Shown: piece by piece, positions 310 through 29,690 of the stretch
How the letters are laid out: each line of letters begins with the position of its first letter
Numbering within the stretch: position 1 is the first letter of the stretch
Assembly: GCA_030390025.1 (NCBI GenBank)
Contig: JASTWF010000064.1
Location: 372,001-436,000, forward strand
Source: Squalus acanthias
Lineage: Eukaryota
DNA length: 64,000 bases
Reading direction: 5' to 3'
Notes under the pieces: generated by a model
Told to the model about the DNA's origin: nothing
What the model saw: the letters and a program-made list of their open reading frames with translations, nothing else
The model's database searches: none
Position numbers and translations under genes: made by a program

Positions 310-890
310 CACCCAGCAGCTGCCTTCAGACCCCCCTCCCAGCAGCTCCCTTCAGACCCCCCCTCCCAGCAGCTCCCTTCAGACCCCCCTCCCAGCAGGT
401 CCCTTCAGACCCCCTTCCCAGCAGGTCCCTTCAGACCCCCCTCCCAGCAGGTCCCTTCAGACTGTCCTCCCAGCAGTTCCCTACAGACCTCCCTCCCAGC
501 AGGTCCCATCAGACCCCCCTCCCAGCAGCTCCCTTCAGACTGTCCTCCCAGCAGCTCCCTACAGACCTCCCTCCCAGCAGCTCCCATCAGACCTTCCTCC
601 CAGCAGCTCCCTACAGACCCCCTCCCAGCAGCTCCCTTCAGAACCCCCTCCCAGCAGCTCCCTTCAGAACCCCCTCCCAGCAGCTCCCTTCAGACCTCCC
701 TCCCAGCAGCTCCCTACAGACCCCCTCCCAGCAGCTCCCTTCAGAACCCCCTCCCAGCAGCTCCCTACAGACCCCCTCCCAGCAGCTCCCTTCAGACCTC
801 CCTCCCAGCAGCTCCCACCAGACCCCCTCCCAGCAGCTCCCTTCAGACCCCCCTCCCAGCAGGTCCCTTCAGAGTCTCCCTCCCAGCAGA
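310..890. repeat. ~25-26-bp C-rich minisatellite (CCAGCAGCTCCCTTCAGACCCCCCTC)
   Basis: Direct tandem repetition; source of the spurious Pro/Ser-rich ORFs. Confidence 0.9.
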
Positions 891-1104
891 TATCCAACTC
901 ACCCGGGGGTCTCTGCCCTCCCTCCTCACCCCCTTCCCTCCTCCTCCCGGCCCCCTCCTCCCTCCGGAATGGGGAAAGGGCAGGGAATGGGACCGAGTGG
1001 AGAGCTCTTTCAGAGATTTAATTGCCCTGTAATACAGTCTAACCGCCCACATTACACTTTGACCCTCACACTCTCTCCTCACACTCCTCTGTTGCTCAAT
1101 CTAG

Positions 1105-1460
1105 TTGTGTGTGGACTCCCCCGTGCAGTTGTTTGTTCGCTGCCCCTCCCTTGTGTTTATCTCTGTTGGAAATCCCCTGTTGGAAAGTCCCTGAGCCAAG
1201 TTTTAGAAAGTTGTTGATCAAACCCGCGTCCATACAGCACCGTTCATGTCCCCAGGACTCTCTCAGCGCCTCACAGCCTGTGAATTATTTGAAGTGTAGT
1301 CACTGTTGTTTTATAGACAAACACAGCAACAGGTCGCTGAGTCTCAGGGCCTGAATCCTGCCCGGTGAGTCAGCGCGATACTGTTCCACATCCCTGGCAA
1401 TCCCCTGTCACAGTCCACAGTCTGCGCACTGGCTGCAGTCCAGCTTCTTCCGAGAAACCA
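1105..1460. promoter_or_regulatory. Candidate NF-kB/AP-1/STAT enhancer upstream of the MHC class I gene
   Basis: GGAAATCCCC (1168-1177) and GGAAAGTCCC (1182-1191) are reverse complements of consensus kB sites; TGAGTCA 1366-1372; kB-like GGCAATCCCC 1396-1405; GAS TTCCGAGAA 1448-1456; mostly non-repetitive DNA. Confidence 0.5.
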
Positions 1461-1562
1461 ACCTTGACTCCACCTTCACTCATCATAAAACCCTCGCATC
1501 GAGCACGTCACTCACACTCAGAGAGTGCGACCCACAACTGCACCTGACATGGCCCAGAATCA

Positions 1563-4490: not shown

Positions 4491-4519
4491 TTTCCCTCTG
4501 TCATGTTCTGTATCAAACT

Positions 4520-4762
4520 ACTTTCAGTTTCTGGTTTAATTATCAAACCTTGTTCAGTTCATCCTACCTGGCGACTCATGATATAGCTCGCAGTATTTCT
4601 CTGATTGGATAGCTCATGATATTGGGAAAGTTTATTTCGACACCGACACAACCTCTCCAGGACTCTTCTACCCGGAGCCTGCTGACTCACAGCCTGTTTT
4701 TATTCTAATTGGACACAAGCATACAGTTGAACCAATCAGTCTGGAGGATTCTGAGTTTAATA
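4520..4762 (+). promoter_or_regulatory. MHC class I promoter with two tandem ISRE-S-X1-X2-Y modules, CCAAT box and TATA-like element
   Basis: Module A: ACTTTCAGTTTCT 4520-4532, AAACCT 4545-4550, CCTGGCGAC 4567-4575, CTGATTGG 4601-4608. Module B: AGTTTATTTC, CAACCT 4649-4654, CCCGGAGCC 4671-4679, TGACTCA 4683-4689, CTAATTGG 4705-4712. Both have 16-bp S-X1 and 25-bp X1-Y spacing. CCAATCAG 4732-4739; TTTAATA 4756-4762. Confidence 0.8.
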
Positions 4763-4985
4763 CAATCAGCACTGGGCACAGTTCACAGACAGAGAGAAGA
4801 CTGGCAGAGAGGGACAGTCCAGGAGGCACGGTATCAGCACTGGGCACAGAGCGACAGTCAGAGAGAAGACGGGCACAGGAATCACACGGTCTCAACTGGG
4901 CACAGCTCACGGATTAAGACGAGACGGTCCCTTGGAAAAGGATTACCCACAAACTGCTCATCCCGGCCTGTCGAGGGAAGCAACA

Positions 4986-5034
4986 ATGATTGGACTGATT
5001 GTGCTGGCCGTTCTGTGTGGAGGGGTCTCTGCAG
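4986..5034 (+). CDS. UAA: MHC class I heavy chain exon 1 (signal peptide MIGLIVLAVLCGGVSA)
   Basis: ATG in ACAATGA context, hydrophobic leader, phase-1 donor G|GTGAGT in frame with exon 2. Confidence 0.9.
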
Positions 5035-5043
5035 GTGAGTCAT

Positions 5044-5272
5044 GGGGTGTGAGAGGGTCTCAGTGCCAGGCTGGGTACTGGGCATTAATCCTCGGTCAGT
5101 GGGTAATGGGGTGTGAGAGGGTCTCAGTGCCAGGCTGGGTACTGGGCATTAACCCTCGGTCAATGGGTAATGGGGTGTGAGAGGGTCTCAGTGCCAGGCT
5201 GGGTACTGGGCATTAACCCTCGGTCAGTGAGTAATGGGGTGTGAGAGGGTCTCAGTGCCAGGCTGGGTACTG
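5044..5272. repeat. ~64-bp intronic VNTR (~4 copies; ~7 in the inverted arm at 12770-13185)
   Basis: Tandem units GGGGTGTGAGAGGGTCTCAGTGCCAGGCTGGGTACTGGGC... Confidence 0.85.
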
Positions 5273-5384
5273 GGGCTGGCGAGGTTGAGACACAATGGGG
5301 TGGGGGGAGGAACTGAGGTCAGGGACACATGAGGCTGGAGACTAAGCGTTAGGGTTATGACACTGGAGAGTGGAGAGGGAGAGA

Positions 5385-6990
5385 GGAACATAGCAACAAG
5401 ATTAGTCTATTCAGCCCCTCGAACCTGTTCCGCCAACCAGTTAGATCACGGCCGATCTGTACCTCAACTCCATTTACGCACCTTTGCTCGATATCGCGTG
5501 ATACTCTGAGCTAAGAAAACACTATCTCAGTTTTGAAAGCTCCAGTTGAGTCTCAACATCCACAGCCTTTTTGGGAGAGATTTCCAGATTTCTACTACCC
5601 TTCGTGTGAAGAAGTGCTTCCTGATTTCCCTCCTAAATGGTCTTGCTCTAATTTGAAGATGATGTCCCCTTGTTCTTGATTGCCCCCCAGAGGGAGTAGT
5701 TTCCCTGTATCTACTCTACCAAACCCTTTTAACATTTTAAACACCTCGATCAGATCACCGTTCAATCTTTGAAACTCGAGAGTATACAAACTAAGTTTAT
5801 ACAATCTGTCCTCATAATTGAACCCTCGAAACCCCAGAATTATTCTGGTGAATCTGCTCTGCACCCTCTCTGTGCCCTGAACTGAACGCAGTGCTCCAGA
5901 TGGGGTCTAACCAGAGCTTTATAGAACTGTAACCGAACTTCCCCACTTTGTATCCCAGTCCTCGAGACAGGCCAACATTCCATGAGCCTTTTTAATTATT
6001 TTTTATCCTTGTCTACTAGCTTTTAGTGATTTCTGTACTTGGAGCCCTAAATCTCTCTGCTCCTCCACAGTTCCCAGCCTCTCACCATTTAGAAAATACT
6101 CTGATCGATCTTTCTTAGGTCCAAAGTGGATGACCTCACACTTTCTCACATTGAACTCCATCTGCCACAGTTTTACCCACACTTAATCTAACGATGTCCC
6201 TTTGCAACTTCCTGCTCACATCTACACAACTTACTGTCCCCATAACTTAGTCTCATCGACAAACTTAGATATACAACTCTCCATTCCTTCATCCAAGTCA
6301 TTTATAAATGTGGTGAAAAGCTGAGGCCCCAGAACAGATCCCTGGGGACACCACTAGTCACATCCCACCAATCAGAGTACCTACCCTTTATCCCCACTCT
6401 CTGTCTCCTACCTCCCAACCAATTTCCAACACAAGTCTAAAGATCACCTCCAATTCCATGCACTCCCATTTTTGCGAAGTCTCTTGTGTGGAACCTTATC
6501 GAATGCCTTCTGGAAATCCATATAAATAACATCTATAGACACTCCCCTATCTATCTGGTTGGTGACCTCCTCAACATAATCAACTAGATGAGTCAGACCT
6601 GACTTACCTTCAACAAAGCCACTCCTCTCTCTGATCAGCTCGTATTTGTTCAAGTGCTCAGTCACTCTGTCCCTAATAACAGATTCTAGTAGCTTCCCAA
6701 ACCCAATGTTAAACTGACTCTCTATAACTCCAACCTTTCTGTCCTCCTCCTGCCTTGGACTGTCTCCTGCTCCATGGTGCCTTGGTCAACATTGTGGCCA
6801 TCCTTCCCACAGCCTTGCTCCTTATCCCCACAGGCAGCAAGCACATCGTACCTGTTGGACAGGACCAGACTCCGTGGTCCCACCTTCCCTGCCTCCACTA
6901 GATTCCCCAACCCTGCTGACCGTCAGTCACACTCCTCCGCCTGAACCTGTACCTCTCTACTTGGTGTGACCGAGATCTGCAGTAAACTAG
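5385..6990 (-). mobile_element. Degenerate, internally deleted CR1 LINE in MHC-I intron 1
   Basis: ORF1 remnant (LSNRYDVLAAC), RT remnant (DVIYMDFQKAFDKVPHKRL), 3' tail near 5390. Confidence 0.85.
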
Positions 6991-7170
6991 GCCCCTCTCC
7001 CTCAGTCCGTCAGTGGGTGGGTTACCCCAGGCCCCTCTCCCTCAGTCTGTCAGTGGGTGGGTGGGTGGGTGGGTTACCCCGGGTCCCTCTCCCTCAGTCT
7101 GTCAGTGGGTGGGTTACCCCAGGCCCCTCTCCCTCAGTCCGTCAGTGGCTGGGTAAGCCCAGGCCCCTCT
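6990..7170. repeat. ~40-bp intronic VNTR (~4 copies; ~10 in the inverted arm)
   Basis: GGCCCCTCTCCCTCAGTCTGTCAGTGGGTGGGTTACCCCA units. Confidence 0.85.
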
Positions 7171-7329
7171 TTCTCAGTCTGGCAGTGATGTTAATGATTG
7201 AATTACAGGGAGTTATGTTAAGTATCTGACCAATGAGATGCTGCATTCAGTCACTCAGCTGGTGATTATTCCCATTGCGTTGTTTAAAAACAACTGGTGT
7301 GACTGGGAGAGGGAGGAGTGGGCCCATGT

Positions 7330-7690
7330 TTCGGCCTATTACTGACGGTGCTCAATGTGACTGGGCCCGAGTCTCGGCCTATTACTGACGGTGCTCAGTG
7401 TGACTGGGCCCGAGTCTCGGCCTATTACTGACGGTGCTCAGTGTGACTGGGCCCGAGTCTCGGCCTATTACTGACGGTGCTCAGTGTGACTGGGCCCGAG
7501 TCTCGGCCTATTACTGACGGTGCTCAGTGTGACTGGGCCCGAGTCTCGGCCTATTACTGACGGTGCTCAGTGTGACTGGGCCCGAGTCTCGGCCTATTAC
7601 TGACGGTGCTCAGTGTGACTGGGCCCGAGTCTTGGCCTATTGCTGACGGTGCTCAGTGTGACTGGGCCCAAGTCTCGGCCTATTGCTGAC
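7330..7690. repeat. 43-bp intronic VNTR (~8 copies; ~14 in the inverted arm at 9860-10480)
   Basis: TCGGCCTATTACTGACGGTGCTCAGTGTGACTGGGCCCGAGTC units. Confidence 0.9.
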
Positions 7691-7704
7691 GATGCTCAGT
7701 GGGA

Positions 7705-8876
7705 CTGGGGCTCTGTTTTGTGTTGGGGTTGATTTCCAGGGGCTCTGTGTTGTGTTGTGTTGGGGTTGATTTCCAGGGGCTCTGTGTTGTGTTGTGTTGG
7801 GGTTGATTTCCAGGGGCTCTGTGTTGTGTTGTGTTGGGGTTGATTTCCAGGGGCTCTGTGTTGTGTTGGGGTTGATTTCCAGGGGCTCTGTGTTGTGTTG
7901 TGTTGGGGTTGATTTCCAGGGGCTCTGTGTTGTGTTGGGGTTGATTTCCAGGGGCTCTGTGTTGTGTTGGGGTTGATTTCCAGGGGCTCTGTGTTGTGTT
8001 GTGTTGGGGTTGATTTCCAGGGGCTCTGTGTTGTGTTGTGTTGGGGTTGATTTCCAGGGGCTCTGTGTTGTGTTGTGTTGGGGTTGATTTCCAGGGGCTC
8101 TGTGTTGTGTTGTGTTGTGTTGGGGTTGATTTCCAGGGGCTCTGTGTTGTGTTGTGTTGGGGTTGATTTCCAGGGGCTCTGTGTTGTGTTGGGGTTGATT
8201 TCCAGGGGCTCTGTGTTGTGTTGTGTTGGGGTTGATTTCCAGGGGCTCTGTGTTGTGTTGTGTCGGGGTTGATTTCCAGGGGCTCTGTGTTGTGTTGGGG
8301 TTGATTTCCAGGGGCTCTGTGTTGTGTTGTGTTGGGGTAGATTTCCAGGGGCTCTGTGTTGTGTTGGGGTTGATTTCCAGGGGCTCTGTGTTGTGTTGGG
8401 GTTGATTTCCAGGGGCTCTGTGTTGTGTTGTGTTGGGGTTGATTTCCAGGGGCTCTGTGTTGTGTTGTGTTGGGGTTGATTTCCAGGGGCTCTGTGTTGT
8501 GTTGTGTTGGGGTTGATTTCCAGGGGCTCTGTGTTGTGTTGTGTTGGGGTTGATTTCCAGGGGCTCTGTGTTGTGTTGGGGTTGATTTCCAGGGGCTCTG
8601 TGTTGTGTTGGTGTTGATTTCCAGGGGCTCTGTGTTGTGTTGTGTTGGGGTTGATTTCCAGGGGCTCTGTGTTGTGTTGGGGTTGATTTCCAGGGGCTCT
8701 GTGTTGTGTTGTGTTGGGGTTGATTTCCAGGGGCTCTGTGTTGTGTTGGGGTTGATTTCCAGGGGCTCTGTGTTGTGTTGTGTTGGGGTTGATTTCCAGG
8801 GGCTCTGTGTTGTGTTGTGTTGGGGTTGATTTCCAGGGGCTCTGTGTTGTGTTGTGTTGGGGTTGATTTCCAGGGG
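7705..8876. repeat. ~32/37-bp GT-rich minisatellite immediately upstream of the exon 2 acceptor
   Basis: GGGGTTGATTTCCAGGGGCTCT(GTGTT)2-4 units. Confidence 0.95.
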
Positions 8877-8906
8877 TTCATGCCATGATGTCTCTCTGTG
8901 TTTCAG

Positions 8907-9167
8907 GCACTCACTCTCTCCGGTATTTCTACACCTGGATGACCCCGATTCCCGGTTTGCCGGAGTTTGTGGTGGTCGGTTATGTGGACGATGCTCAGTT
9001 TGTTCAGTATGACAGCGACCGGAAACAGATGATCCCGCGGCAGCGGTGGATTGAGGAGAGCGAGGACGAACAATACTGGGAGCGGGAGACACAGAACCTG
9101 CGGGGCTCGGAGCAGATTGGGAAGGTCGATATTCAGACCCTCATGACCCGGACCAACCAGACTGGCG
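8907..9167 (+). CDS. UAA: MHC class I heavy chain exon 2 (alpha1 domain), classical/UAA type
   Basis: TTTCAG| acceptor and G|GTGAGT donor; 261 nt; GTHSLRYFYT...PEFVVVGYVDD...YDSD...YWERETQ...RTNQT with Y7, Y59, R84 and the N86 sequon. Confidence 0.95.
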
Positions 9168-9174
9168 GTGAGTC

Positions 9175-13191: not shown

Positions 13192-13240
13192 CTGCAGAGA
13201 CCCCTCCACACAGAACGGCCAGCACTACCAGTCCAATCAT
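13192..13240 (-). CDS. UAA: Second MHC class I exon 1 (signal peptide MIGLVVLAVLCGGVSA)
   Basis: Reverse-complement copy with intact ATG and GTGAGT donor; ATT>GTA (I>V) difference. Confidence 0.85.
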
Positions 13241-13463
13241 TGTTGCTTCCCTCGACAGGCCTGGATGAGCAGTTTGTGGGTAATCCTTTTCCAAGGGACC
13301 GTCTCGTCTTAATCCGTGAGCTGTGCCCAGTTGAGACTGTGTGATTCCTGTGCCCGTCTTCTCTCTGACTGTCGCTCTGTGCCCAGTGCTGATACCGTGC
13401 CTGCCGGACTGTCCCTCTACGCCCGTCTTCTCTCTGTCTGTGAACTGTGCCCAGTGCTGATTG

Positions 13464-13696
13464 TATGAAACTCAGAATCCTCCACACTGATTGGTTCGAC
13501 TGTATGCTTGTGTCCAATTAGAATAAAAACAGGCTGTGAGTCAGCAGGCTCCGGGTAGAAGAGTCCTGGAGAGGTTGTGTCGGTGTCGAAATAAACTTTC
13601 CCAATATCATGAGCTATCCAATCAGAGAAATACTGCGAGCCATATCATCAGTTGCCAGGTAGAATGAACTGAACAATTAAACCAGAAACTGAAAGT
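13464..13696 (-). promoter_or_regulatory. Second MHC class I promoter (double SXY; distal S box absent)
   Basis: Mirror of 4520-4762; lacks ATCAAACCTT; distal X1 is CCTGGCAAC; TATA-like element is TTTCATA. Confidence 0.75.
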
Positions 13697-13890
13697 AGTT
13701 TGACACCGAACATGACAGAGGGAAGAACATTAGGAAAAGGAGGAGGCCATTCAGCCCCTTGGGCCTGCTCCACCATTCAATCAGATCAGGGCTGATCTGT
13801 ACCTCAACTCCATTTACCCGCCTTTGCTCCATATCCTTTAATACCCTAACCCAACAAAAATCATCGATCCCAGTCTTAAAAGCTCCCATT

Positions 13891-14671: not shown

Positions 14672-15418
14672 CCTAAATGGCCTCGCTCTAATTTTAAGTT
14701 TATGTCCCCTCTTTCTTGATTCACCCACCAGAGGGAATAGTTTCCCCGTTTCTACCCTATCGAAACCTGCTAACATTATAAACATCTCGATTAGCTCACC
14801 CCTCAACTTTCTATACTCCAGGGAATACAAGCCAAGTTTAAGCAACTTGCCTTTAAAGCCCCAGTACCATTCTGGTCAATCTGCGCTGCAGCCCCTCCAA
14901 GGCCAGTCTATCCTTCCTGAGGTGCGGTGCCCAGAACTGAACACAGTGCTCCAGATGGGGTCTGACCAGAGCTCGGTACAACTGAAGCTCAGCTTCCTCC
15001 CCTTTGTATCCCAGCCCTCGAGATAAAGGCCAACATTCCATTCGACAGACTGGTGAGATGGGCAGACACACGGCAGATGGAACTTAACACAGAGAAGTGT
15101 GAAGTGACGCCTTTTGGAAGGAAGAATGAGGAGAAGCAATATAAACAAAATGGTACAATTTTAAAGGGTGCAGGAACAGAGAGGCCTCGGGATTTATGTA
15201 CACAAATCTTTGAAAGAATCTTTGAAAGTGGCAGGACAAGTCGATAAGGCTGTTAAAAAGCTACAGGGTCCTTGGCTTTATAAACAGTGACATAGAGTAC
15301 AAAAGCAAGGACGTTAGGCTAAACCTTTATAAAACACTATTTAGGCCTGGGCTGGAGTATTCTGGCCATTTCTGGGCTCCACACTTTAGGAAGGATGTCA
15401 AGGCCTGGGAGAGGGTGC

Positions 15419-17970
15419 TCCCAGTCCAACTCCCCCTGACCTGCTGAAACTTAACCCTCTCCCAGCCCCACTCCCCGTAACCTGCTGAACTTTAACCCGC
15501 TCCCAGCCCCAGTCCCCTGACCTGCTGAACTTTAACCCCTACCAACCCCACTCCCTGACCTACTGAACATTAACCCCCTCGCAACCCCACTCCCCCTGAC
15601 CTGCTGAACTTTAACCCTTCCCACTCCCCTGACCTGCTGCACTTTAAACCCCTCCCAGCCCCACTCTCCCTGAACTGCTGCACTTTAACCCCTCCCAGAT
15701 CCACTCCCTGATGAACTTTAACCCACTCCCCCTGACCTGATGAACTTTAATCCCCTCCAAGCCCCACTCCCCCTCACCTGCTGAATTTAAATCCCCTCCA
15801 AGCCCCACTCCCCCTGACCTGCTGAACTTTAACCCCCTATCAGTCCCACTCCCCTGACCTACTGAACATTAACCCCTTTCCAGCCCCACTCCTGACCTGC
15901 TGAACTTTAACATGCTCCCAGCCCTACTCCCCCTGACCTGCTGAACTTTAATCCCCTCCAAGCCCCACTCCCCCTGACCTGCTGAACTTTAACCCTTCCC
16001 AGCCCCACTCCCCTTGCCCTGCTGAACTTTAACCCCCTCCCAGCCCCACTCCCCCTGACCTGCTGAAGTTTAACCTCCTCCCAGACCCACTCCCCATGAC
16101 CTGCTGAACTTTAACCCCTCCCAGCCTCACTCCCTCAGACCTGCTGCACTTTAACCCCCTCCCAGCCCCACTCCCCTGAACTGCTGCACTTTAACCCCTC
16201 CCAGACCCACCCCCCACCCCCACCCAACCCCACTCCCCCTGACCTACTGAACTATAATCCTTCTCAGCCCCACTCCCCTTGTCCTGCTGCACTTTATCCC
16301 CTCCCAGCCCCACTCCCCATGATCTGCTGCACTTTAACCCCCCTCCAAGACCCACTTCCCCTGACCTGCTGAACTTTAACCCACTCCCCCTGACCTGCTG
16401 CACTTTAAACCCCTCCCAGCCCCACTCTCCCTGACCTGCTGAACTTTCACCCACTCTCCCTGACCTGTTGAACTTTAACCCCCTCCCAACCCCACTCCCC
16501 ATGACTTGCTGAACTTTAACCCCGCACCCAGCTCCACTCCCACGACCTGCTGAACTTTAACCCCCTACCAGCCCCACTCCCCTGACCTACTGAACTTTAA
16601 CCCCCTCCCAACCCCACTCCCCCTGACCTGCTGAACTTTAACCCTTCCCAGCCCCACAACCCCTGACCTGCTGAACTTAACCCCCTCCCAGCCCCACTCC
16701 CCCATAACTGCTGCACTTTAAGCACCTCCCAGTCCAACTCCCCCTGACCTACTGAACTTTAACCCTCTCCCAGCACCAGTCCCCCTGACCTGCTGAACCT
16801 TAACCCTCTCCCAGCCCCACTCCCCGTAACCTGCTGAACTTTAACCCGCTCCCAGCCCCAGTCCCCTGACCTGCTGAACTTGAACCCCCCCCCCACCCAG
16901 CCCCACTCCCCCTGACCTGCTGAACTTTAACCCCCTCCACCCAGCCCCACTCCCCCTGACCTACTGAACATTAACCTCCTCCCAGCCACACTCCCCTGAC
17001 CTGCTGAACTTTAACCCCTCCCAGCCCCACTCCTGACCTGCTGAACTTTAAACCCCTACCAGCCCCACTCCCCTGACCTGCTGAACTTTAACCCTTCCCA
17101 GCCCCAGTCCCCCATAACTGCTGAACTTCAACCCACTCCCCCTGACCTGCTGAATTTAAACCCCTCCCAGCCCCACTCCCCCTGACCTGCTGAACTTTAA
17201 CCCATTTCCCAGCCCCACTCCCCCTGACGTGCTGAACTTTAACCCTTCCCAGCCCCACTCCCCTGACCTGCTGAACTTTAACCCTTCCCAGCCCCACTCC
17301 CCTTGACCTGCTGCACTTTAACCCCTTTCCAGCACCACTCCTGAGCTGCTGAACTTTAACACGCTCCCAGCCCCACTCCCCCCGACCTGCTGCACTTTAA
17401 CCTGCCCTCCCAGCCCCACTCCCCCTGACCTGTTAAGTTTAACCTCCTCCCAGACCCACTCCCCTGAACTGCTGCACTTTATCCCCTCCCAGTCCCACTC
17501 CCCATGACCTGCTTAACTTTAACCCCCCCCACCCAGCCCCATTCCCCTTGTCCTGCTGAACTTTAACCCCCCTCCCAGACCCACTCCCCGACTTGCTGAA
17601 CTTTAACCCCCCACCCAGCTCCACTCCCCCTGACCTACTGAACTTTAACCCGCTCCCAGTCCCCCTGACCTGCTGAACTTTGACCTAATCCCCCTGTCCT
17701 GCTGCACTTTAACCCCCTCCCAGCCCCACTCTCCCTGACTTGCTGAACTTGAACCCCCCGACCTGCTGAACTTTAAACCCCCACCCAGCCCCACTCCCCC
17801 TGACCTACTGAACTTTAACCCCCTCCCAGCCCCACTCCCCCTGACCTGCTGAACTTTAACCCCCTCCCAGCCCCATTTCCCCATACCTGCTGAACTTTAA
17901 CCTCCTTCCAGCCCCACTTCCCCATACCTGCTGAACTTTAACCCCTCCCACTCCCCCTGTCCTACTGAAC
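15419..17970. repeat. ~38-bp C-rich satellite (CCCCTCCCAGCCCCACTCCCCCTGACCTGCTGAACTTTAA)
   Basis: Degenerate tandem array of ~2.5 kb. Confidence 0.95.
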
Positions 17971-18000
17971 CCAGTTGAACAGGCTTTGGAAAAGCTGACT

Positions 18001-19030
18001 CGACCTAATCGGTGACAGTGGAGGAGGCCACAAGATATGAAACAGCCGAGGAGAGGACAGCACAGACTTAATCGGTGGCAGTGGAGGAGGCCACAAGATA
18101 TAAAACAGCCGAGGAGAGGACAGCACGGACCTAATCGGCTGCAGTGGAGGAGGCTACAAGATATAAAACAGTCGAGGAGAGGACAGCACAGACCTAATCG
18201 GTGGCAGTGGAGGAGGCCACAAGATATAAAACAGCCGAGGAGAGGACAGCACGGACCTAATCGGCTGCAGTGGAGGAGGCTACAAGATATAAAACAGCCG
18301 AGGAGAGGACAGCACGGACCTAATCGGCTGCAGTGGAGGAGGCTACAAGATATAAAACAGCCGAGGAGAGGACAGCACAGACCTAATCGGTGACAGTGGA
18401 GGAGGCCACAAGATATAAAACAGCCGAGGAGAGGACAGCACAGACCAAATCGGCAGCAGTGGAGGAGGCCACAAGATATAAAACAGCCGAGGAGAGGACA
18501 GCACAGACCAAATCGGCAGCAGTGGAGGAGGCCACAAGATATAAAACAGCCGAGGAGAGGACAGCACAGACCTAATCGGTGACAGTGGAGGAGGCCACAA
18601 GATATAAAACAGCCGAGGAGAGGACAGCACGGACCTAATCGGCAGCAGTGGAGGAGGCTACAAGATATAAAACAGTCGAGGAGAGGACAGCACGGACCTA
18701 ATCGGTGACAGTGGAGGAGGCTACAAGATATAAAACAGCCGAGGAGAGGACAGCACAGACCTAATCGGTGGCAGTGGAGGAGGCCACAAGATATAAAACA
18801 GCCGAGGAGAGGACAGCACAGACCTAATCGGTGACAGTGGAGGAGGCCACAAGATATAAAACAGCCGAGGAGAGGACAGCACAGACCTAATCGGTGGCAG
18901 TGGAGGAGGCCACAAGATATAAAACAGCCGAGGAGAGGACAGCACAGACCTAATCGGTGACAGTGGAGGAGGCCACAAGATATAAAACAGCCGAGGAGAG
19001 GACAGCACAGACCTAATCGGCAGCAGCGGA
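18001..19030 (+). repeat. 63-bp tandem repeat (~16 copies) containing TATAAAA, at the 5' end of a CR1
   Basis: GACCTAATCGGTGGCAGTGGAGGAGGCCACAAGATATAAAACAGCCGAGGAGAGGACAGCACA units. Confidence 0.9.
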
Positions 19031-20743
19031 ACCGCCGACAATTTCAACAGCAACAAGAACCAAGGAGTGACGTCACAGCACAGCAGGTAGGTGATTGGTG
19101 GGTGAGTATTAACGCTGTTTCTCTGTAACCTGGGACAGTGGCTTAAACCAGGAGCGGGAAACTATAACGCACTTCATTAAATTTATAACTTAACCAGTTA
19201 AACTAATTAATATAACTATAAATAGTCATTGAATAAAGATTTTAACTAATTAAATAAATAAAAGAAGGTTAGACTAAGGTTTGGCAGGGCAGGTTGTGTG
19301 TCTGGACTGCAGTCTGTGGACAGCGAGACTGTCCCGAGCGAACACGTCTGCAGGAGATGTCTCCGTCTCGAATCTCTCCGGCTCAGAGTCATTGAGCTGA
19401 GTGCGAGTTGGAGACACTCCGACACGTGAGGGAGGGGGAAGAGTATCTGGACAGTTTGCTCCAGACCTCGGTTATACCTCGTAGAGAGGTGCAGGATCAG
19501 AACGGGATCGAGTTCAAAGCGTTTGAAAGGGAGAAATGCAAAACAGCTACTAAGATTCTAGATTTAGGTAAGACCGACTTCAATGGGATGAGGCAGAGAC
19601 TGTCCACAGTAAACTGGGCAAATCTGTTAATGGGTAAAATGACAAAAGATCAGTGGGAGATGTTTAAAAAAAAAGAACCAGTTTATACCCCTGAGTGGCA
19701 AGAACTCAACTTGCCAAAAAAAACAGCCGTGGACGACTAAAGAGGTAAGAGACAACATAAAACTAAAGGAAAGGGCATACAAAAATGCAAAAAATAGCAC
19801 AGATCCTGACGAATGGGAAAGATAGAAAGAACAGCAAAGGGTCACAAATCAGACAGTAAGAGCTACAAAAGGGAGTATGGAAAGAAACTTGCAAGGCCTA
19901 TTAAAATCAATACGAAGAATTTTTATAGCTACATGAGGAAAAAGAGGGTGGTCAGGAGCAATGTTGGCCCCTTAAAAACTGATAACGGTGATATTGTCAA
20001 TGACAATGGGGAAATGGCGGACATGTTGAATAATTACTTTGTGTCAGTATTTACAGTAGAAGAAGAGGATAGCATGCCGGAAATCCCAAAGAAACTAATA
20101 TTGAATCGGGGACAGGGACTCAATAAAATGAATGTAGGTAAAATAACAGTAATGAAGAAAATAATGCCACTAAAGAGTGACAAATCCCCAGGGCCAGATG
20201 GTTTCCATCCCAGGGTTTTAAAGTATGTAGGTGAGAACATTGCAGATGCCCTAACTATAATCTTCCAAAGTTCTCTAGATTCAGGAATGGCCCGGATATT
20301 CCGCTCGGAGGCTTCCCGCGGGCAGAAGCCCCTGACCTGCAAAAAAGAACCGCACGGACCTTAATGCTCTGGGCCCACGTAAACTTCCGTTGTAATCCTG
20401 AGGACTCCTGGGCAGCGTATGACGTCACGCCACCCAGGAGCACAGCGTGTGCGGAGCCTAGGGCTTCACGTGTAGGGGAGACCCGCCCTCAAAAGTTATA
20501 TTTGCATAGGCCACGCCCCCGATTATTTTCAACTCTTCAGAAGCATTGGCAACTGAAAGTAGCTGCAAAACTCAATGGTAAGTTGTTTCTTTATAGTTTT
20601 TTGAATCTTTTGTAAACTTTTAAAGACTTTTACATAGATTTGAAGAATCTTAAATAGTTTTAAAGAGATTTGAAGCAATTTAAAGAGTTTTAAAAGCCCT
20701 GAAAACATTTTTTTCATTCATTTTAATTAATGAGCAAAGTGAA

Positions 20744-21203
20744 ATGGAAGGACTGAGCACAATTCGCATGATTAAGAGAGCTCAGAATTTCAGTGACCAT
20801 GACATCAGCACACTCCTCAATGAGGTTGAGGTGAAGTGCCTGTGGATCCTTGGGAATGAGAAGTCCAGGGCGCCGCGCAAAGGACAGATGACAGCTTGGT
20901 CAGAAGTTGCCCAGGCTGTCAGCGCGAACTCCACCATTCCACGGACAGCGGAACAATGCCATTACTTTGACTCCCGCAGAACCGCCCTTACCTGCTCCCA
21001 GCGCAGACACAGTGCAGGCCCATGAGACAGCAGCTCCGCCAATCCTGATGCAAGCAAACGTTGCCTTTCAGCAGCAGCAGCAGCAGCAGCAGCAGCCCTG
21101 TCAGGAGGCAATTGCTGAAGGGCAAGAGATGGCACACAGGGGCCTTTCAATTGGCAGCAGAGGGCTCCGGTCACGGGGAAGGGGAAAGCGCAGGAGACAG
21201 TAG
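20744..21203 (+). pseudogene. Harbinger Myb/SANT-like (trihelix) DNA-binding protein, internally deleted/frameshifted
   Basis: KRAQNFSDHDISTLLNEV...AWSEVAQAVSA...RTAEQC, then loss of the expected RKKW helix; polyQ and basic tail in another frame. Confidence 0.7.
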
Positions 21204-21714
21204 GGTGTCACCTTTGCACAATCCACATCCTTTGACCCTCAGGCACAGATACGAGGGGGCAAATCGTTCAATTCTTTCATGTTTCGTTTTATTTAAATGT
21301 TAAATGGTGTCGTTGCTTTTTTTTATTGAAATATATATTTGTGACTGAAAGTGTATGTAACCGTTTTGTTTAAAAAGTACAGCCTCTAGTCACTTTGAAA
21401 AAAATGTCAACTCTTTTATTTGCAAAGATATTTAAAATTACAACTGTTTGAAAATTAGAAAATAGCTCGTTTCCATCTTGAATGTCTTTATTGCACTAAG
21501 AAACCAAAAAAGTCACTTTAAACTGTTTACAAATTTTATTTAAAAAAAATTATGTTTGCGAAGGTTTGAAAAGTAGAAAATAACATTTAAAAGTTAAAAA
21601 CTGAACCTCAAAAGTCTTTGATGCTGCAATAAAAGTTCACTGTTTCACTTTAAATTGTGTCTGTTCCTTTCTTTGCCTTGCTGGGGGAGGGGGAGGTACA
21701 AGGCGAGACTATCA

Positions 21715-22860
21715 TCACCTCGTGAAGGTGTTGGCTACTAGCAGTTCCCGAGCAGCCGTACTTTCGGCAGCACTTGGCTCCTCCCCATCAGGCCTGGCCA
21801 CAGGCACATTGGCATCGTCCATGTCCTCCATTTCAGCAGGGAGCTCCTCTGCAGGGTTAAAGGTCAGTCCGACCCGCAGGGCAAAGTTATGCAAAGCACA
21901 ACAGGCCACCACAATCCTTGGCACTTTCAGAGGAGAATACTGCAAGGTCCCCCCTGACCTGTCCAGGCACCGGAAGCATGATTTCAGAACCCCGATTGTC
22001 CTCTCCACCACTTGCCGTGTGGACACGTGTGCCTGGTTGTGTCTCTCCTGAGCCTCATTATTGGTCTTGCGGTAGGGAGTCATCAGCCATGGTCTTAGCG
22101 GGTAGCCCTTGTCGCCCAATATCCATGCGGATCCTGGAGGCAATGTGCTGAGGGCGCCATATAAGTCCGAGTTACGGAGGACGAAGGAGTCATGAGCACT
22201 TCCCCGGTGCTCTGCATTCACGTTTAGGATCCTGAGGTGCGCATCACAGACTATCATGACATTCAATGAATGAAACCCCTTCCTGTTGATGTATGTCACA
22301 GGTGCATCCAGTGGTGCCTTCAATGCAACATGGGTTCCATCGACAGCCCCAATCACTTTGGGGAATCCAGCAATGGTATAAAATGCAAGGGCCATCTCCT
22401 TTTGATGGCGTGTGGACAAGTCAAAGTCCATGAACTCTGAAGCCCTACGGAAAATGGCATCTGTGACCTGGTGAATGCAGGCCAATGCAGCACTCTGGGA
22501 GATGTTGGTAATGTCACCGGTGCCTGCCTGAAATAACCCACTTGCAAAGAAGTTCAGCGCTGTGGTTACCTTCATGTTCACTGACAAGGCAGTGCGGGTC
22601 TTCGAGCGTGTTTGAAGGTCCTCCTTTAACATGTCACATAGTCGGCCGATTGCCTCTTTACTGAAGCGCAGCCTCCTCACACACAACTCCGACAGCATCT
22701 CAAATGACAGCCTCTCCCTGTACACTCTCTGCGGTGGGTAATAGTTCCTCCTGATCAGGAGACGGTGATGGTTCCTCGGTCTTCTTTGTTGTTCCCTGGC
22801 GTTTCCAATTCTCTGATGCACAATTGCACCGAGGATCAAGGCAACATCGTCAAAGGGCAT
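21715..22860 (-). CDS. Harbinger (HARBI1-like) DDE transposase, 381 aa, uninterrupted
   Basis: GAVDGTHV, HDSFVL, LGDKGYPL, RQVVERTIG and CCALHNF motifs. Confidence 0.93.
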   Translation of the reverse strand: MPFDDVALILGAIVHQRIGNAREQQRRPRNHHRLLIRRNYYPPQRVYRERLSFEMLSELCVRRLRFSKEAIGRLCDMLKEDLQTRSKTRTALSVNMKVTTALNFFASGLFQAGTGDITNISQSAALACIHQVTDAIFRRASEFMDFDLSTRHQKEMALAFYTIAGFPKVIGAVDGTHVALKAPLDAPVTYINRKGFHSLNVMIVCDAHLRILNVNAEHRGSAHDSFVLRNSDLYGALSTLPPGSAWILGDKGYPLRPWLMTPYRKTNNEAQERHNQAHVSTRQVVERTIGVLKSCFRCLDRSGGTLQYSPLKVPRIVVACCALHNFALRVGLTFNPAEELPAEMEDMDDANVPVARPDGEEPSAAESTAARELLVANTFTR

Positions 22861-24242
22861 GTTTCTCCCTCACAGGCTTCCTCTTCAAACAGATGAAGTA
22901 CTTGTAAGGAAAAAATGGAAAGAGTTGTAAAATTAATTTTAATAAAGTGAGTGGCTAGAAAATCAGGTCGGGCTATGGTGGGAAACGTGTGGTATCGGAT
23001 TGGGAACACGTCATACCCGCCTGATGAATATCACGGCCCGAGATGATTTTCTAAGAACTTTAACATTTTCACAAAGTCATACCTACAATTTTTAAAGGGC
23101 ATGGAAAAGTTAACATATAACTAATTGATATTTTCTGGCATAATTTTTTAAAACTTCAGTAAATGTTAAAGAATTCATTTTTAAACAGTCATTTTCACAT
23201 TTAAGAAAATGAAATTTAATTCAATAGAATGATTACCTTGCACACAGCAAGAGTTGCTCTTTATAACTACACTACTCAAAACAAGATCCAAAACCATTTT
23301 TAACAAATTAAAGTTGATAAAAACTTACCTCAGACTTTCTACAAAGAACTTTGCTCACTTTCACAATTAAAAATGTTCCCTTTCCAAGCCCCCTGCTGAA
23401 AAAGTTCTTCTTCCTGGAGCTTCTTCCGGTAGAATGCTGGCTGTACACCTGCTTTTACTGGGTGCAGCTGTTTCAGACGTACCTGGACTGAAGCATTTGA
23501 GAAAAAATCGGAACATTGAGCTGGTAGCGCTGCCTATCCTGCGCATGCGTTTGATCTGTCAAAGCCCTTTCTTGACAGATCGGAAATGCCGGTTTCCAGC
23601 GCATGCGCTGTGCATGCCTGAAACCGGCATTTCCGATGTCCCTATGGGTGAGTACACAGCGCGTACCCACCCGTAGGGATCGGAATATCCGGGCCAATGC
23701 CACTAAAGAGTGACAAATTCCCAGGGCCAGATGGTTTCCAGCCCAGGGTTTTAAAGTATGTAGGTGAGAACATTGCAGATGCCCTAATTCTAATCTTCCA
23801 AAGTTCTCTCGATTCAGGAACCATCCCTTTAGATTGGAAAATTGCGCATGACACTCCACTTTTTAAGAATGGTGAGAAAGGGAAACCAGAGAATTATAGA
23901 TCAGTTAGCCTAATATCTGTTGTGGTAAATTGTTAGAGTCTATAATTAAGGATAGGGTGATTGAATACTTAGAAAATGTTCAGTTGATCAGAGAGAACTG
24001 GCATGGATTTGTAAAAGGTAGGTCATGCCTGACAAACCTGACTGAATTTTTTGAGGAGGTGACTAAAGTAGTGGACAGAGGAATGTCTATGGATGTTATT
24101 TATATGGACTTCCAGAAGGCATTTGATAAAGTCCCTCATAAGAGACTGTTACCTAAGGTAGAAGCCCATGGAGTTGAGAGCAAATTATTGACCAAGTTAG
24201 GAATTCGGCTGAGCGGCAGGAGAGAGAGAGTAGGGATAATGG

Positions 24243-26263
24243 AGGTCTAGCAGCTAGCCGACAACCACGACGTGCGTGGATTCTTTAAGACCACCTACGG
24301 CCCAAGCACCCATGCTCCTACCCCACTGTGGGCCAAGAATGGAGAGGTAGTCATCAAGGACAGAGAGGCAGTCAGTGCTCGCTGGAAGGAGCACTTCGAA
24401 GATCTCCTTAACCGAGACTCTGTCTTCAATGCGAGTGTCCTCAACTCCATCCCGCAGCATGCTACCCGTCACCACCTCAGCACAATCCCAGCCCGGCATG
24501 AGGTTGAAAAGGCCATCCGACAACTGAAGAACAACAAGGCCTCAGGAGCAGATGGAATCCCCGCCGAGACACTAAAGCATGGTGGAGAAGCACTATTGGC
24601 GTGAATACATGAACTCATTTCTCTTATTTGGAAGGAGGAGAGCATGCCAGCAGATCTCAGAGACACCGTAATCGTGTCCATCTTCAAGAAAGATGACAAG
24701 TCCGATTGTGGTAATTACAGTGGAGTTTCCCTGCTGTCTGCCACAGGGAAAGTCATTGCAAGAATCCTCCTCAATCGCCTTCTCCCAGTGGCTGAAGAGC
24801 TCCTTCCAGAGTCGCAATATGGATTCCGCCCACTAAGGGGCACAATGGACATGATCTTCACTGCGCGTCAAATACAAGAGAAATGCAGGGAACAGCACCA
24901 ACTGCTGTACATGGGCTTCTTTGACCTCACAAAGGCCTTCGACACTGAGGGATTATGGAGTGTCCTCCTCAAATTCGGCTGCCCTCAAACGTTTGTCACC
25001 TCTGCCTGCTTCACGATGACATGCAAGCCATGATCCTGACCAACGGATCCACCACAGACCCAATTCACATACGGACCGGAGTCAAGCAAGGCTGTGTCAT
25101 CGCATCAATGCTCTTCTCGATCTTCCTGGCTGCAATGCTCCATCTCACCCTCAGTAAGCTCCCCGCTGGAGTAGAGATAATTTACAGAACAAACGGGAAA
25201 CTGTTCAACCTCCGTCGCCTCCAGCCCAGATCCAAGGTTGTCCCATCCTCTGTCATCAAATTACAGTATGCAGACGACGCTTGCGTCTGCGCACACTCTG
25301 AGGTCAACCTCCAAACCATCGTCAACACCTTCACCAAAGCGTACGAGAACATGGGCATTACACTAAACATGCATAAGACAAAGGTCCTCTACCAACCTGC
25401 CCCCGCCACACATTACTGCTCCCCGATTATCAAAATCCATGATGAGGCCTTGACAACGTGGACCACTTTCCATACCTCAGGAGCCTACTGTCAACAAGGG
25501 CAGACGTCGATGACGAAGTCCAACACCGCCTTCAGTGTGCCAGTGCAGCCTTCGTTCGCCTGAGGAAGAGAGTGTTTGAAGATCAGGACATCAAACCTGG
25601 CACCAAGCTCATGGTCTACAGAGCAGTAGTGATACCCGCCCTCCTGTATGCTTCAGAGACATGGACCATGTACAGCAGGCACCTCAAAGCACTGGAGAGG
25701 TACCACCAACGCTGCCTCCGCAAGATCCTGCAAATCCACTGGCAGGATAGGCGCACCAACGTCAGTGTTCTCATTCAGGCCAACATCCCCAGTATCAAAG
25801 CTTTGACCACGCTCGATCAGCTCCGATGGACGGGCCACATCGTCTGCATGCCCGATCCGAGACTCCCAAAACAAGCGCTCTACTCGGAGCTCTGACACGG
25901 CAAGAGAGCCCCAGGTGGGCAGAGGAAATGCTTCAAGAACACCCTCAAAGCCTCCTTGAAAAAGTGCAACATTCCCACCGACACCTGGGAATTCCTGGCC
26001 CAAGACCGCTCAAAGTGGAGGAGAAGCATCCGGGAAGGCGCCGAACACCTCGACTCTCTTCGCCGGGAGCAAGCGGAAGCCAAGTGCAAGCAGCGGAAGG
26101 AGTGCACGTCAACCCAAGCACCCCACCCACCCGCCCCTTCAACCACCATCTGCCCCACCTGTGACAGAGACTGTAGGTCCCGCATTGGACTCATCAGTCA
26201 CCTGCAAACTCATTTTTAGTGTGGAAGCAAGTCATCTTCCGTTCCGAGGGACTGTCTAAGAAG
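24243..26263 (+). mobile_element. RTE-clade (BovB-like) LINE, 5'-truncated, frameshifted
   Basis: NNKASGADGIPAE, GVKQGCVI, LQYADD, HFPYL, C-terminal CPTC...H; (AAG) tail; short AATGG duplication. Confidence 0.85.
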
Positions 26264-26405
26264 AATGGGTAGGTACTCAAATTAGCAGGATGTGACTAGT
26301 GGTGTCCCGCAGGGATCACTGTTGGGGTCTCAACTATTCACAATATTTATTAACGACTTAGATGATGTCATATATCTAAATTTACCGATGACACAAAGAT
26401 AGGCG

Positions 26406-26473
26406 ATCGATAGCTCCGAAAGCTTGTGATTTCAAATAAAACTGTTGGACTATAACCTGGTGTTGTGCGACCT
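26406..26473 (+). mobile_element. 68-bp Penelope-like element 3' stub
   Basis: GCTCCGAAAGCTTGT...AATAAA...GTTGGACTATAACCTGGTGTTGTGCGAC shared with 46782-46840; 14-bp TSD CACAAAGATAGGCG. Confidence 0.75.
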
Positions 26474-27347
26474 CACAAAGATAGGCGGCATTGTAGATGA
26501 AAGTGTAAAATTACAAAGGGATATCGACAGATTAAGTGACTGGGCAAAACTGTGGCAAATGGATTTCAATGTAAGCAAATGTGAGGTCATCCACTTTGGA
26601 CCTAAAAAGGATAGAACAGGGTACTTTCTAAATGGTGAAAGGCTAAAAACAGTGGCTGTCCAAAGAGACTTGGGGGTACAGGTACATAGATCATTAAAAT
26701 GTCATGAACAGGTACAGAAAATAATCAAAAAAACTTTATATCTAGAGGACTAGAATACAAGGGGGTAGAAGTTATGCTGCAGCTATACAAAGCCCTGATT
26801 AGACCACACCTGGAGCACTGTGAGCAGTTCTGGGCACCACACCTCAGGAAGGATATATTGACCTTGGAGAAAGTGCAGCGCAGGTTTACCAGAATGATAC
26901 CCAGACTTCAAGGTTTAAGTTACGAGGAGCGATTACACAAACTAGGGTTGTATTCCCTGGAATTTAGAATTTAGGGTGATCTTATCGAAGTTTTCAAGAT
27001 ATTAAGGGGAACAGATAGGATAGATAGAGATAAACTATTTCCACTGGTTGGGGATTCTAGAACTAGGGGACATAGTCTAAAAATTAGAGCCAGACCTTTC
27101 AGGAGTGAAATTAGGAAACACTTCTACACACAAAGGGTGATAGAAGTTTGGAACTCTCTTCCGCAAACGGCAATTGATGCTAAATCAATTGTTAATTTTA
27201 AATCGGAGATTGATAGCTTTTTGTTAACCAAAGGTATTAAAGGATATGGGCCAAAGGCAGGTATATGGAGTTAGATCGCAGATCAGCCATGATCTCATTG
27301 AATGATGGAACAGGCCCGAGGGGCTGAATGGCCTCCTCCTGTTCCTA

Positions 27348-27500
27348 TGACTCAGACCCCTGTTGCTAAGAGACGGCTTCACATCCCAGTTACTGGGAGT
27401 TTCCTGTGGAGATAATGGGGGAGGGGCTGACTGAGGGGGCTGTCCAATGAGAATTAGACTCAGCAGGACGTCACTGTTACCAGGCAGAATAACCGGCAAT
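27348..27500 (-). promoter_or_regulatory. Candidate distal MHC-type X1-X2-Y enhancer or promoter with kB, RFX and AP-1 sites
   Basis: Minus strand: CCTGGTAAC (27484-27476), TGACGTC (27473-27467), CTCATTGG (27451-27444), GTCTCTTAGCAAC (27374-27362). Plus strand: GGGAGTTTCC 27395-27404, TGACTCA 27348-27354. Confidence 0.6.
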
Positions 27501-27544
27501 GTTTACATCTGTCGCCCAGCTCATTTCATTGAAAGAAGTACAGG

Positions 27545-27834
27545 GTGAAAGAGGGAGAGAGAGAGTGAAAGCGAGGAGAGTGAAAGCGAGGAGAGTGAAA
27601 GAGAGAGAGAGAGTGAAAGAGAGAGAGAGAGACAGAGAGAGTGAAACGGAGAGTGAAAGAGGAGTGAAACGGAGAGTGAAAGAGAGGAGTGAAAGAGAGA
27701 GAGTGAAAGAGAGAGTGAAAGAGAGAGAGGGAGTGAAAGAGAGAGAGACAGAGAGTGAAACGGAGAGTGAAAGAGGAGTGAAACAGGGAGAGTGAAAGAG
27801 AGGAGTGAAACAGGGAGAGTGAAAGAGAGGAGTG
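27545..27834. repeat. GA-rich simple repeat
   Basis: (GAGAGTGAAA)n-like. Confidence 0.9.
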
Positions 27835-27964
27835 NNNNNNNNNNNNNNNNNNNNNNNNNNNNNNNNNNNNNNNNNNNNNNNNNNNNNNNNNNNNNNNNNN
27901 NNNNNNNNNNNNNNNNNNNNNNNNNNNNNNNNNNNNNNNNNNNNNNNNNNNNNNNNNNNNNNNN
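27835..27964. other. Assembly gap (130 N)
   Basis: Run of N. Confidence 1.
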
Positions 27965-29690
27965 CCTAGATGAAGGGACCGAGTGCAATGTATCCAAGTT
28001 TGCTGACGATACAAAGCTCGGTGGGACAGTAAGCTGTGAGGAGAACACATGGGGGGAGAAATTCAGTTGCTTTGTGCCTCCCGTTAGTGCCCTAAGAGGG
28101 TCTAACGGGGCACAAAGCAACTAGCGCCCGGGCATGGCGCCGCCAACGCCTCCCGCGAAATTCAGCGGGAGGTTAGTGGCGACGGTAACTGTTTGCGCCC
28201 CACGGTGTTGCGCCGCCGGCGATGACATCATCGCCGTGCACAGCGCCCCGCTCGCGCCCCAGTCGCGATCTTCGGTAGCGCCCCCTGACTTACGCCGGAC
28301 GCTATGTCCAATGGGGTCAGGGGGGCCTACCTGCGGTCGGGGCGGCGCTAATTAAAGGCGCAGTTCCAGGCGGCCATTTTTGCTGCTGGCCGCCTGCCAG
28401 CACTTGCCCCCGTTGCCGTCCCTGGCCTCCTCAGCACACCTCCCCCCCCACGGAGTACCGGCTGCGCTCCGTGAGCCCGGCACTTCTCTTGAGTGCCGGG
28501 CTCTTTTGCCGGCTCTCTGATCCCAGTGGCCCAGCTGGGCCCCGGGTGCTGCTGCGCAAGGCCCCTCCCCTTTAGGAAGGGGAGGAAGGCCTGCAATACC
28601 GCGGCACGACGTATCACAGCGCATGGCGCTGCGGCACTTAGCACGTCGATATTCCCTCGCAGCGCCCCAAGAGGGAGGCGGGACGCTTCCAGTAGCGCCC
28701 TGCTTCCCTCTAGGGGCGCTACCGATGAATTTCGGCCACGGGGGCGCTAATTTTTTCGGGGTGCTAAAAGTAGCGCCCCGGTGAAGTTAGCGCCCCAAAG
28801 GGAGCGCGACTCAAATTTTCCCCCAAAGGGATATAGATAAACTAAGTGAGTGGGCAGTAAGGTGGCAGATGGAGTATAATGTAGGGAAATGAGGTTATTC
28901 ACTTTAGTAGGAAGAATAGAAAAACAGAATATTTTTTAAATAGTGAGAAACTTTCAAATGTTGGTGTTCAGAGATTTGGGTGTCCTCGTGCAAGAAACAC
29001 AGAAAGCTAGCATGCAGGTACAGCAAGCAATACGGAAGGCAAATGGCATGTTGGTCTTTATTGCAAAGGGGGTTGGAGTATAAGAGTAAGGAAGTCTTGC
29101 TACAATTGTACAGGGCCTTGGTGAGACCACACCTGGAGTACTGTGCACAGTTTTGGTCTCCTTATCTAAGGAAGGATATACTTGCCTTGGAGGCGGTGCA
29201 ACAAAGATTCACTAGATTGATTCCTGGGATGAGAGGGATGTCCTATGATGAGAGATTGTGTAGAATGGGCCTATACTCTCTGGAGTTTAGAAGAATGAGA
29301 GGTGATCTCATTGAAACATACAAGATTCTGAAGGGGATAAACAGAGTAGATGCTGAGAGGTTGTTTCCCCTGGCTGGAGTGTCTAGAACTAGGGGGCATA
29401 GTCTCAGGATAAGGGGTAGGCCATTTAAGACTGAGATGAGGAATTTCTTCACTCAGAGGGTTGTGAATCTCTGGAATTCTCTGCCCCAGAGGGCTGTGAA
29501 TGCTGAGTCATTGAGTATATTCAAGGCTGAGATAGATAGATTTTTTGGACTCTAGGGGAATCAAGGGATATGGAGGTCGGGCGGGAAAGTGGAGTTGAGG
29601 TCGATGATCAGCCATGATCTTATTGAATGGCAGAGCAGGCTCGAGGGGCCGTATGGCCTACTCCTGCTCTTATTTCTTATGTTCTTATGA
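27965..29690 (+). mobile_element. CR1 LINE 3' part, interrupted by a MITE
   Basis: [38 protein letters not shown] tail. Confidence 0.88.
28051..28824. mobile_element. GC-rich non-autonomous DNA transposon (Harbinger-type MITE)
   Basis: Imperfect TIRs GGGGGAGAAATTCAGTTGC / GCGACTCAAATTTTCCCCC; subterminal AGCGCCC repeats; interrupts the CR1. Confidence 0.7.

Follow-up and report, generated by a model that had tools for sequence, protein, structure and literature searches.

The distal modules of the DRA and Ea genes lie inverted relative to their promoters, sharks possess CIITA, NLRC5 and the RFX complex, and a locus control region is defined by position-independent, copy-number-dependent expression. 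The described systems closest to the element reported here are HLA-DRA's S'-Y' module along with the other distal S-Y modules of class II genes, in which a copy of the promoter module lies kilobases upstream and remote from exons (PMC2677874, PMC1802633, PMC4243378). The HLA-DRA S'-Y' module, at -2.3 kb, is bound by RFX and CIITA (PMC2677874), and distal S'-Y' regions undergo transcription (PMC1904273). Distal X-Y enhancers in mammals are a class II feature; in mouse, NLRC5 ChIP-seq found no intergenic enhancers or sites in the MHC, nor any distal X-Y enhancer occupied by NLRC5 there (PMC4374748), and in human the CIITA sites that PMC4243378 names for the class I region are promoter-proximal. 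NLRC5 action in mouse is determined by the S box (PMC4374748), S mutations lower activity only partly (PMC1802633), CIITA sites outside class II promoters are frequently without W/S (PMC4381081), and an X-Y spacing of 17-18 is termed usual (PMC7753138). Elasmobranchs have one class Ia gene and a variable number of class Ia-like genes, according to an article with 0 occurrences of either "promoter" or "regulatory" (PMC10751288), and a literature search conducted mostly outside subscription journals listed no article on the class I promoters of sharks or on X-Y modules that lie distal to class I genes.

The window analysed here, 64,000 nucleotides of the Squalus acanthias assembly, contains parts of two MHC class I copies placed tail to tail over a 200-N gap (9,561-9,760). 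The plus-strand copy (4986..9168) has a leader at 4,986-5,034 and an alpha1 exon at 8,908-9,168, the product of which shows 85% identity with a class I chain of Squalus acanthias and 71% identity with PDB 6LUP, and has Y7, Y59 and R84, which we take to be alpha1 peptide-anchor positions. The minus-strand copy consists of a promoter, a leader exon (13192..13240) and intron 1 only, the intron extending as far as the 200-N gap (9,760). Among the matches listed when 12 of 27 class I proteins were compared with the window, there was neither a third leader nor an exon for alpha2, alpha3 or the transmembrane part. Each promoter (4499..4764 on the plus strand and 13462..13727 on the minus strand) has an ISRE, at 13,685-13,694 in the minus copy, together with modules A and B, each of X1-X2-Y type and with ATTGG 37 nt from the start of X1. 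An AACCT-type S hexamer stands 16 bp before X1 in module B and in module A of the plus copy. In the minus copy, module B (X1 at 13,547-13,555) has its S at the same 16 bp, and module A (X1 at 13,651-13,659) has lost its S box through a 10-bp deletion. The layout of mouse H2-K, with an AACCT-type S, 16 bp and an X1-to-ATTGG distance of 37 as counted from printed primers (PMC4374748), is matched by module B and by module A of the plus copy. Within this tandem double SXY promoter (4545-4712 and 13512-13659), module B equals H2-K in S hexamer type and in all three spacings, a match conserved across jawed vertebrates.

Satellites end both class I copies on either side of the 200-N gap. As elasmobranchs have a single class Ia gene and a varying set of Ia-like ones, the two arms may be haplotypes scaffolded together or close paralogues, and their inverted arrangement may reflect two haplotypes falsely recorded as a duplication. 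Between the arms, mismatches are denser across promoter, 5' UTR and leader (4499-5034 and 13192-13717), with 18 in 536 columns, than across the intron-1 LINE, with 8 in 1,499. The promoter changes cluster around module A, and no difference occurs from the Y box of A to the end of module B, a pattern that suggests old allelic lineages or gene conversion. A 233-bp GC-rich insert (14439-14671) is found in the minus arm only. In the plus copy, satellite and promoter are separated by about 2.9 kb that is absent from the minus copy, including a single-copy segment (890..1560) with two kB sites (1,168-1,191) and an AP-1 site. The break in the minus copy falls inside a LINE and leaves it without a 3' tail, which points to a deletion in the minus copy.

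Upstream of the minus copy lies a single-copy island (27350..27549), bounded by the 3' tail of a LINE on one side and, on the other, by a GA microsatellite (27,550-27,834) that runs up to a 130-N gap; it has no second copy anywhere in the 64-kb window. On its minus strand, the same strand as the neighboring class I copy, motif positions and profile place a distal X1-X2-Y module (27444..27484), with X1, an RFX half-site, at 27,476-27,484, a CRE-type X2 at 27,467-27,473, and Y at 27,444-27,451, its ATTGG core occupying 27,444-27,448. An earlier note on this DNA had described an orphan MHC-type module here, sharing its orientation with the minus class I copy and lacking both an adjacent exon and a well-spaced S box. 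All the motifs it named were located where it had placed them, the module is borne out by motif positions, profile score and shuffles, and its orientation agrees with that description. Concerning the S box, none is present at 16 bp, but a degenerate S-like hexamer, AAACAT (27499..27504, minus strand), which the note had missed, lies 14 bp before X1.

Around the module are a kB consensus site (27395..27404, plus strand; one of 7 such sites in 1-40,400), a second RFX half-site (27389..27396, minus strand) and a third RFX half-site or X1-like box (27362..27374, minus strand), both without a subsequent Y box, and an AP-1 site (27348..27354, plus strand), the first 6 nt of which are the right copy of a candidate target-site duplication. 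The second half-site lies within a perfect 15-bp palindrome (27,384-27,398) with 7-bp arms, which overlaps the kB site as well. These accessory sites are weaker: 0.035 kB sites and 0.059 AP-1 sites are expected per 200 bp, and three same-strand RFX half-sites inside 130 bp turned up in 4/200 shuffles. The third RFX site was also considered as part of a further full module that would parallel module B; this was rejected, as no ATTGG follows and downstream identity is at background.

The absence of an exon beside the island held up, with no class I exon there by comparison with class I proteins and by the ORF and Pfam scan, and with neither a class I exon nor a non-mobile ORF found nearby by class I proteins, Pfam and a six-frame check. 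The island itself was rejected as a coding exon, since stops occur in all six frames and the longest open stretch is 51 codons. Comparison of 28 proteins with the island gave matches of 5-18 residues only (best E 0.034), and a 92-codon ORF overlapping it had no Pfam match. A structured RNA was likewise rejected, with four weak Rfam matches in 17,000-29,500 and none on the island, and a check for plasmid contamination gave no match. Pfam matches were obtained for 11 of the 26 scanned ORFs, every one of mobile-element type.

The spacing of the island module can be compared directly with that of known X-Y systems. The start of X2 lies 25 nt from ATTGG, the distance that the earlier note had equated with module B and that module A shares as well. 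The start of X1 lies 36 nt from ATTGG rather than the 37 of A and B, because the X1-X2 gap of the island is 2 nt and not 3. The CRE center may be in register with that of HLA-DRA, and the X-Y spacing falls within the natural range. Counted by eye from printed primers, the 36 nt equal H2-Eb and the X2-to-ATTGG distance of 18 nt equals H2-K, whereas the X1-X2 gap is 3 nt in H2-K and H2-Eb as in modules A and B (PMC4374748).

Like the distal class II modules, the island has X1, X2 and Y in order and is remote from exons, as a copy of a promoter module kilobases upstream. Unlike them, it sits upstream of a shark class I gene, has a degenerate S at 14 bp and a 2-nt X1-X2 gap, and adds kB, AP-1 and extra RFX half-sites. 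It is oriented as its promoter is, in contrast to the inverted distal modules of DRA and Ea. No class II or invariant-chain target was seen; the sole host gene found in the window, by class I proteins and Pfam, was class I. With the NLRC5-type SXY modules of H2-K, H2-D, B2m, Tap1 and Psmb9, the island has in common an X box, a Y box and a pyrimidine tract before X1, but those modules are promoter-proximal, whereas the island is 14,244 bp from the ATG and has no class I-type S box at about 16 bp. The W/S-independent XY sites bound by CIITA resemble the island in having class II-like X-Y spacing without a proper S, though many of them recruit CIITA without gene regulation, whereas the island is a sequence relative of an adjacent MHC promoter (PMC4381081). 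As it has no S at 16 bp and no class II target was found, and as it does not fit the NLRC5-type definition, the island is best described as a variant of the distal class II modules and not a member.

In order to avoid circularity, a three-block profile was trained on promoter modules A and B alone and evaluated against locally shuffled windows. The island scored 32.4 bits and ranked first outside the training set, the top unrelated site scoring 11.7, and 0 of 200 shuffled windows reached the island score (maximum 24.6). A strict X1-TGA-Y pattern matched at two places, the island and the minus copy's module A, and in 0 of 200 shuffles; looser patterns were not significant alone (X1 plus Y in 58/200 shuffles, X2 plus Y in 105/200). 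When the profile was trained on single modules, the island score was reached in 0/100 shuffles for A of the plus copy, 0/100 for A of the minus copy and 9/100 for B, which is not significant by itself. With the ATTGG core blanked, the corresponding counts were 0/100 for A and B together, 2/100 for A of the minus copy, 63/100 for A of the plus copy and 100/100 for B. These outcomes indicate that the signal is solid and A-like. X1, X2 and Y therefore occur in order on one strand above chance, and the motifs of the island are not a chance occurrence.

Similarity to the promoter modules extends beyond the motif cores. When the whole island was aligned with the 266-bp promoter, the top local alignment landed on the modules and on the correct strand, and shuffles reached it in 15 of 3000 cases for the minus promoter and 138 of 3000 for the plus promoter. 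At 36 non-core positions the island matched module A of the plus copy at 18, A of the minus copy at 19 and B at 17, compared with 27, 30 and 25 of 98 positions in the farther flanks (Fisher P about 0.015 each, only indicative as the non-core windows were picked after the alignment had been inspected). Between A and B themselves, 11-12 of the same 36 positions agree. Similarity stops about 8 nt past Y, the 13-15 matches in 52 positions downstream being background, and beside the island there was no remnant of an ISRE, a module B, a 5' UTR or a leader. By these alignments the island and module A are diverged relatives, alike over about 65 bp only. The short similarity and the lack of such remnants fit an old duplication of a single module better than a recent copy of the whole promoter, and we infer that duplication of a promoter module was the probable origin of the island.

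The distance between island and promoter has a history of its own. From the island, the minus copy's module A lies 13,825 bp away and the ATG of that copy 14,244 bp, so that the spacing of about 14 kb given in the earlier note is correct today; it is however secondary, owing mostly to a single LINE insertion. This decayed CR1-type LINE (18002..27347, plus strand) comprises a 63-bp monomer array, a 5' UTR, ORF1, endonuclease and RT pieces and a 3' tail, its pieces being colinear 5' to 3' with a LINE at 36.3-40.5 kb. A 6-bp word is present at both ends (17,996-18,001 and 27,348-27,353), its right copy overlapping the AP-1 site of the island; 146 of 20,000 random junction pairs had a duplicated word of this kind. 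The left end is the start of the 63-bp array, which was found independently, and the last array unit runs into the 5' UTR, from which the array would be part of the LINE. A boundary at the end of the array was rejected, as no duplicated word exists there. The left flank (17951..18001, plus strand), which includes an NFAT core GGAAA (17,988-17,992) and the left copy of the duplication, would be the former continuation of the island, and is preceded by a 41-bp satellite (15418..17950) that recurs at 1-166, upstream of the plus copy, and is oriented there in the same way with respect to the gene. Excising 9,352 bp leaves X1 4,473 bp from module A, 2.5 kb of which is satellite, and if the plus layout is ancestral, just about 1.2 kb of single-copy DNA would separate island and promoter region. 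With no N gap between island and module A, the gaps being 9,561-9,760 and 27,835-27,964, the empty-site analysis now ties the island physically to the upstream region of the minus class I copy in the presumed pre-insertion layout. A joint system of island, double promoter and kB cluster, as the earlier note had proposed, is not found together on one copy in the window, because the minus copy lacks the kB segment and the upstream region of the plus copy leaves the window.

In the empty-site reconstruction, the GGAAA at 17,988 comes to lie 3 nt from the AP-1 site. This is the sole GGAAA-N3-AP-1 match made by LINE removal, the present window has 0, and GGAAA occurs at a frequency of 0.0017 per position. 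We take the restored geometry, noticed post hoc, to be an NFAT:AP-1 composite. The source found for it states only the adjacency of NFAT and AP-1 sites in ARRE-2 (PMC2779587), and a literature search for the 3-nt spacing in sequence letters did not find it. The LINE has 7 stops in 849 aligned codons, a decay of about 5%, whereas shared repeats of the two arms diverge by 0.5-1.9%. The LINE is thus older than the split of the arms, and too young to prove selection on the module since its displacement.

Several features of the LINE are worth recording in their own right. Its 5' end (18002-19110) has 16 copies of the 63-bp unit with TATA-like and CCAAT-like words, is directed at the island and could transcribe through to it. 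The 5' UTR also contains a full CRE followed by ATTGG at 19,068, so X2-Y pairs arise elsewhere as well. Nested in the LINE are a PIF/Harbinger transposon (20287..23696), with a DDE_Tnp_4 ORF, a Myb/SANT ORF and terminal inverted repeats, and a second, unrelated RT element (24243..26263, plus strand), which we take to be RTE-like. The Harbinger transposase ORF, 384 codons, is open, and on either side of the transposon stands a directly repeated 125-bp piece of LINE sequence (20163-20287 and 23695-23819, 96% identical), far longer than the 3-bp target duplication usual for Harbinger elements.

With moderate confidence, we read the island as a distal RFX/CREB/NF-Y enhancer of the neighboring class I gene, more CIITA-like than NLRC5-like. 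A promoter X-Y module, closest to module A, would have been duplicated long ago and placed a few kb upstream, and the CR1 LINE with its nested elements would then have moved it 9.35 kb further out. RFX would bind X1, CREB/ATF X2 and NF-Y the Y box, and the bound island may open chromatin and, by looping, present the double promoter with a second landing platform, a mechanism modeled on HLA-DRA S'-Y' at -2.3 kb (PMC2677874, PMC1904273). Given its poor S box, the island is expected to recruit CIITA, or to act without an NLR coactivator, better than it would recruit NLRC5. The kB site, extra RFX half-sites and AP-1 site may add activation-dependent input, the NFAT:AP-1 composite having presumably been split in two by the LINE. 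Weighing against this reading are the off-canon S hexamer and X1-X2 gap, the absence of intergenic sites from the mouse NLRC5 data, the result of training on B alone and the X2-Y pair in the LINE 5' UTR.

It is unlikely, though by no means negligible, that the island is instead a module already dead or on its way there, whether as a promoter left behind when a tandem class I paralogue was deleted or as a onetime enhancer that the LINE knocked out. The orientation of the island is that expected of a tandem copy, its S box and X1-X2 gap are off canon, the composite NFAT:AP-1 site is split, a LINE decay of about 5% leaves too short a time for erasure, and the minus copy is also without the kB segment and the module A S box. 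An orphaned promoter is however at odds with a similarity that ends about 8 nt past Y and with the lack of ISRE, module B, 5' UTR and leader remnants, and the cores have stayed near consensus while the spacers are about 50% diverged, a comparison tempered by the fact that the cores were the basis of selection.

Since X-Y modules are directional promoter elements and the island points at the gene, and since distal S'-Y' regions are known to be transcribed (PMC1904273), the island might also drive the class I gene, or a non-coding RNA, as an alternative promoter lying upstream, its non-coding first exon having been lost in or behind the LINE. We regard this as distinctly unlikely, as there is no coding frame at the island (2-5 stops in each of 6 frames), Rfam gives no match over it, neither a TATA box nor a clear donor was seen by eye, and the opposite-strand LINE starts about 95 bp past Y.

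A real module might alternatively serve another gene (class II, B2M or TAP/PSMB) outside the window or across the 130-N gap, which is only 285 bp off. The X1 and the X1-Y distance of the island resemble class II boxes, and elasmobranch class Ia and class II regions are adjacent (PMC10751288). Such a target is nevertheless highly improbable in view of the gap-free connection to the class I promoter, 4.5 kb before the insertion, the non-core similarity of the island to class I modules, and the stretch from position 28 kb to the window end, where repeats and satellites were all that was seen.

That the motifs came together by chance, or belong to a dispersed repeat (a LINE promoter, for instance), as the shortness of the motifs, the repeat-rich region and the CRE-ATTGG pair in the neighboring LINE 5' UTR might suggest, is barely credible, as 0/200 shuffles reach the island score and the island is single copy in 64 kb and lies beyond a LINE 3' tail, not at a LINE 5' end.

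If the island works as the distal enhancer that we favor, it bears on whether the regulation of both MHC classes goes back to a common architecture and on how NLRC5 and CIITA came to be split; should it be dead, it still keeps a small record of a duplicated promoter module. In either case it offers a 200-bp testable element with natural paired states, the LINE-split and the empty site. A broader and rather doubtful extension is that three related X-Y modules drive elasmobranch classical class I genes, the distal one being conserved in sharks and rays as a CIITA-recruiting locus control element. Were this three-module reading true, long-range S'-Y' control of the class II type would have been present in the ancestor of both MHC classes and have disappeared from mammalian class I genes, and gains and losses of sequence upstream, at the LINE, the kB segment and the module A S box, would tune expression among class I haplotypes.

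Finally, two further features lie beyond the island. A GC-rich single-copy element with inverted ends (28050-28825), inside a LINE fragment, is probably a non-autonomous DNA transposon, and weak hairpin-type Rfam matches, below threshold, fall at 28,659-28,722. From 41244 to 64000 the window consists of a higher-order array in which blocks of a 42-bp satellite alternate with 16-17 copies of a LINE 3' fragment, one every 1.0-1.6 kb or so.
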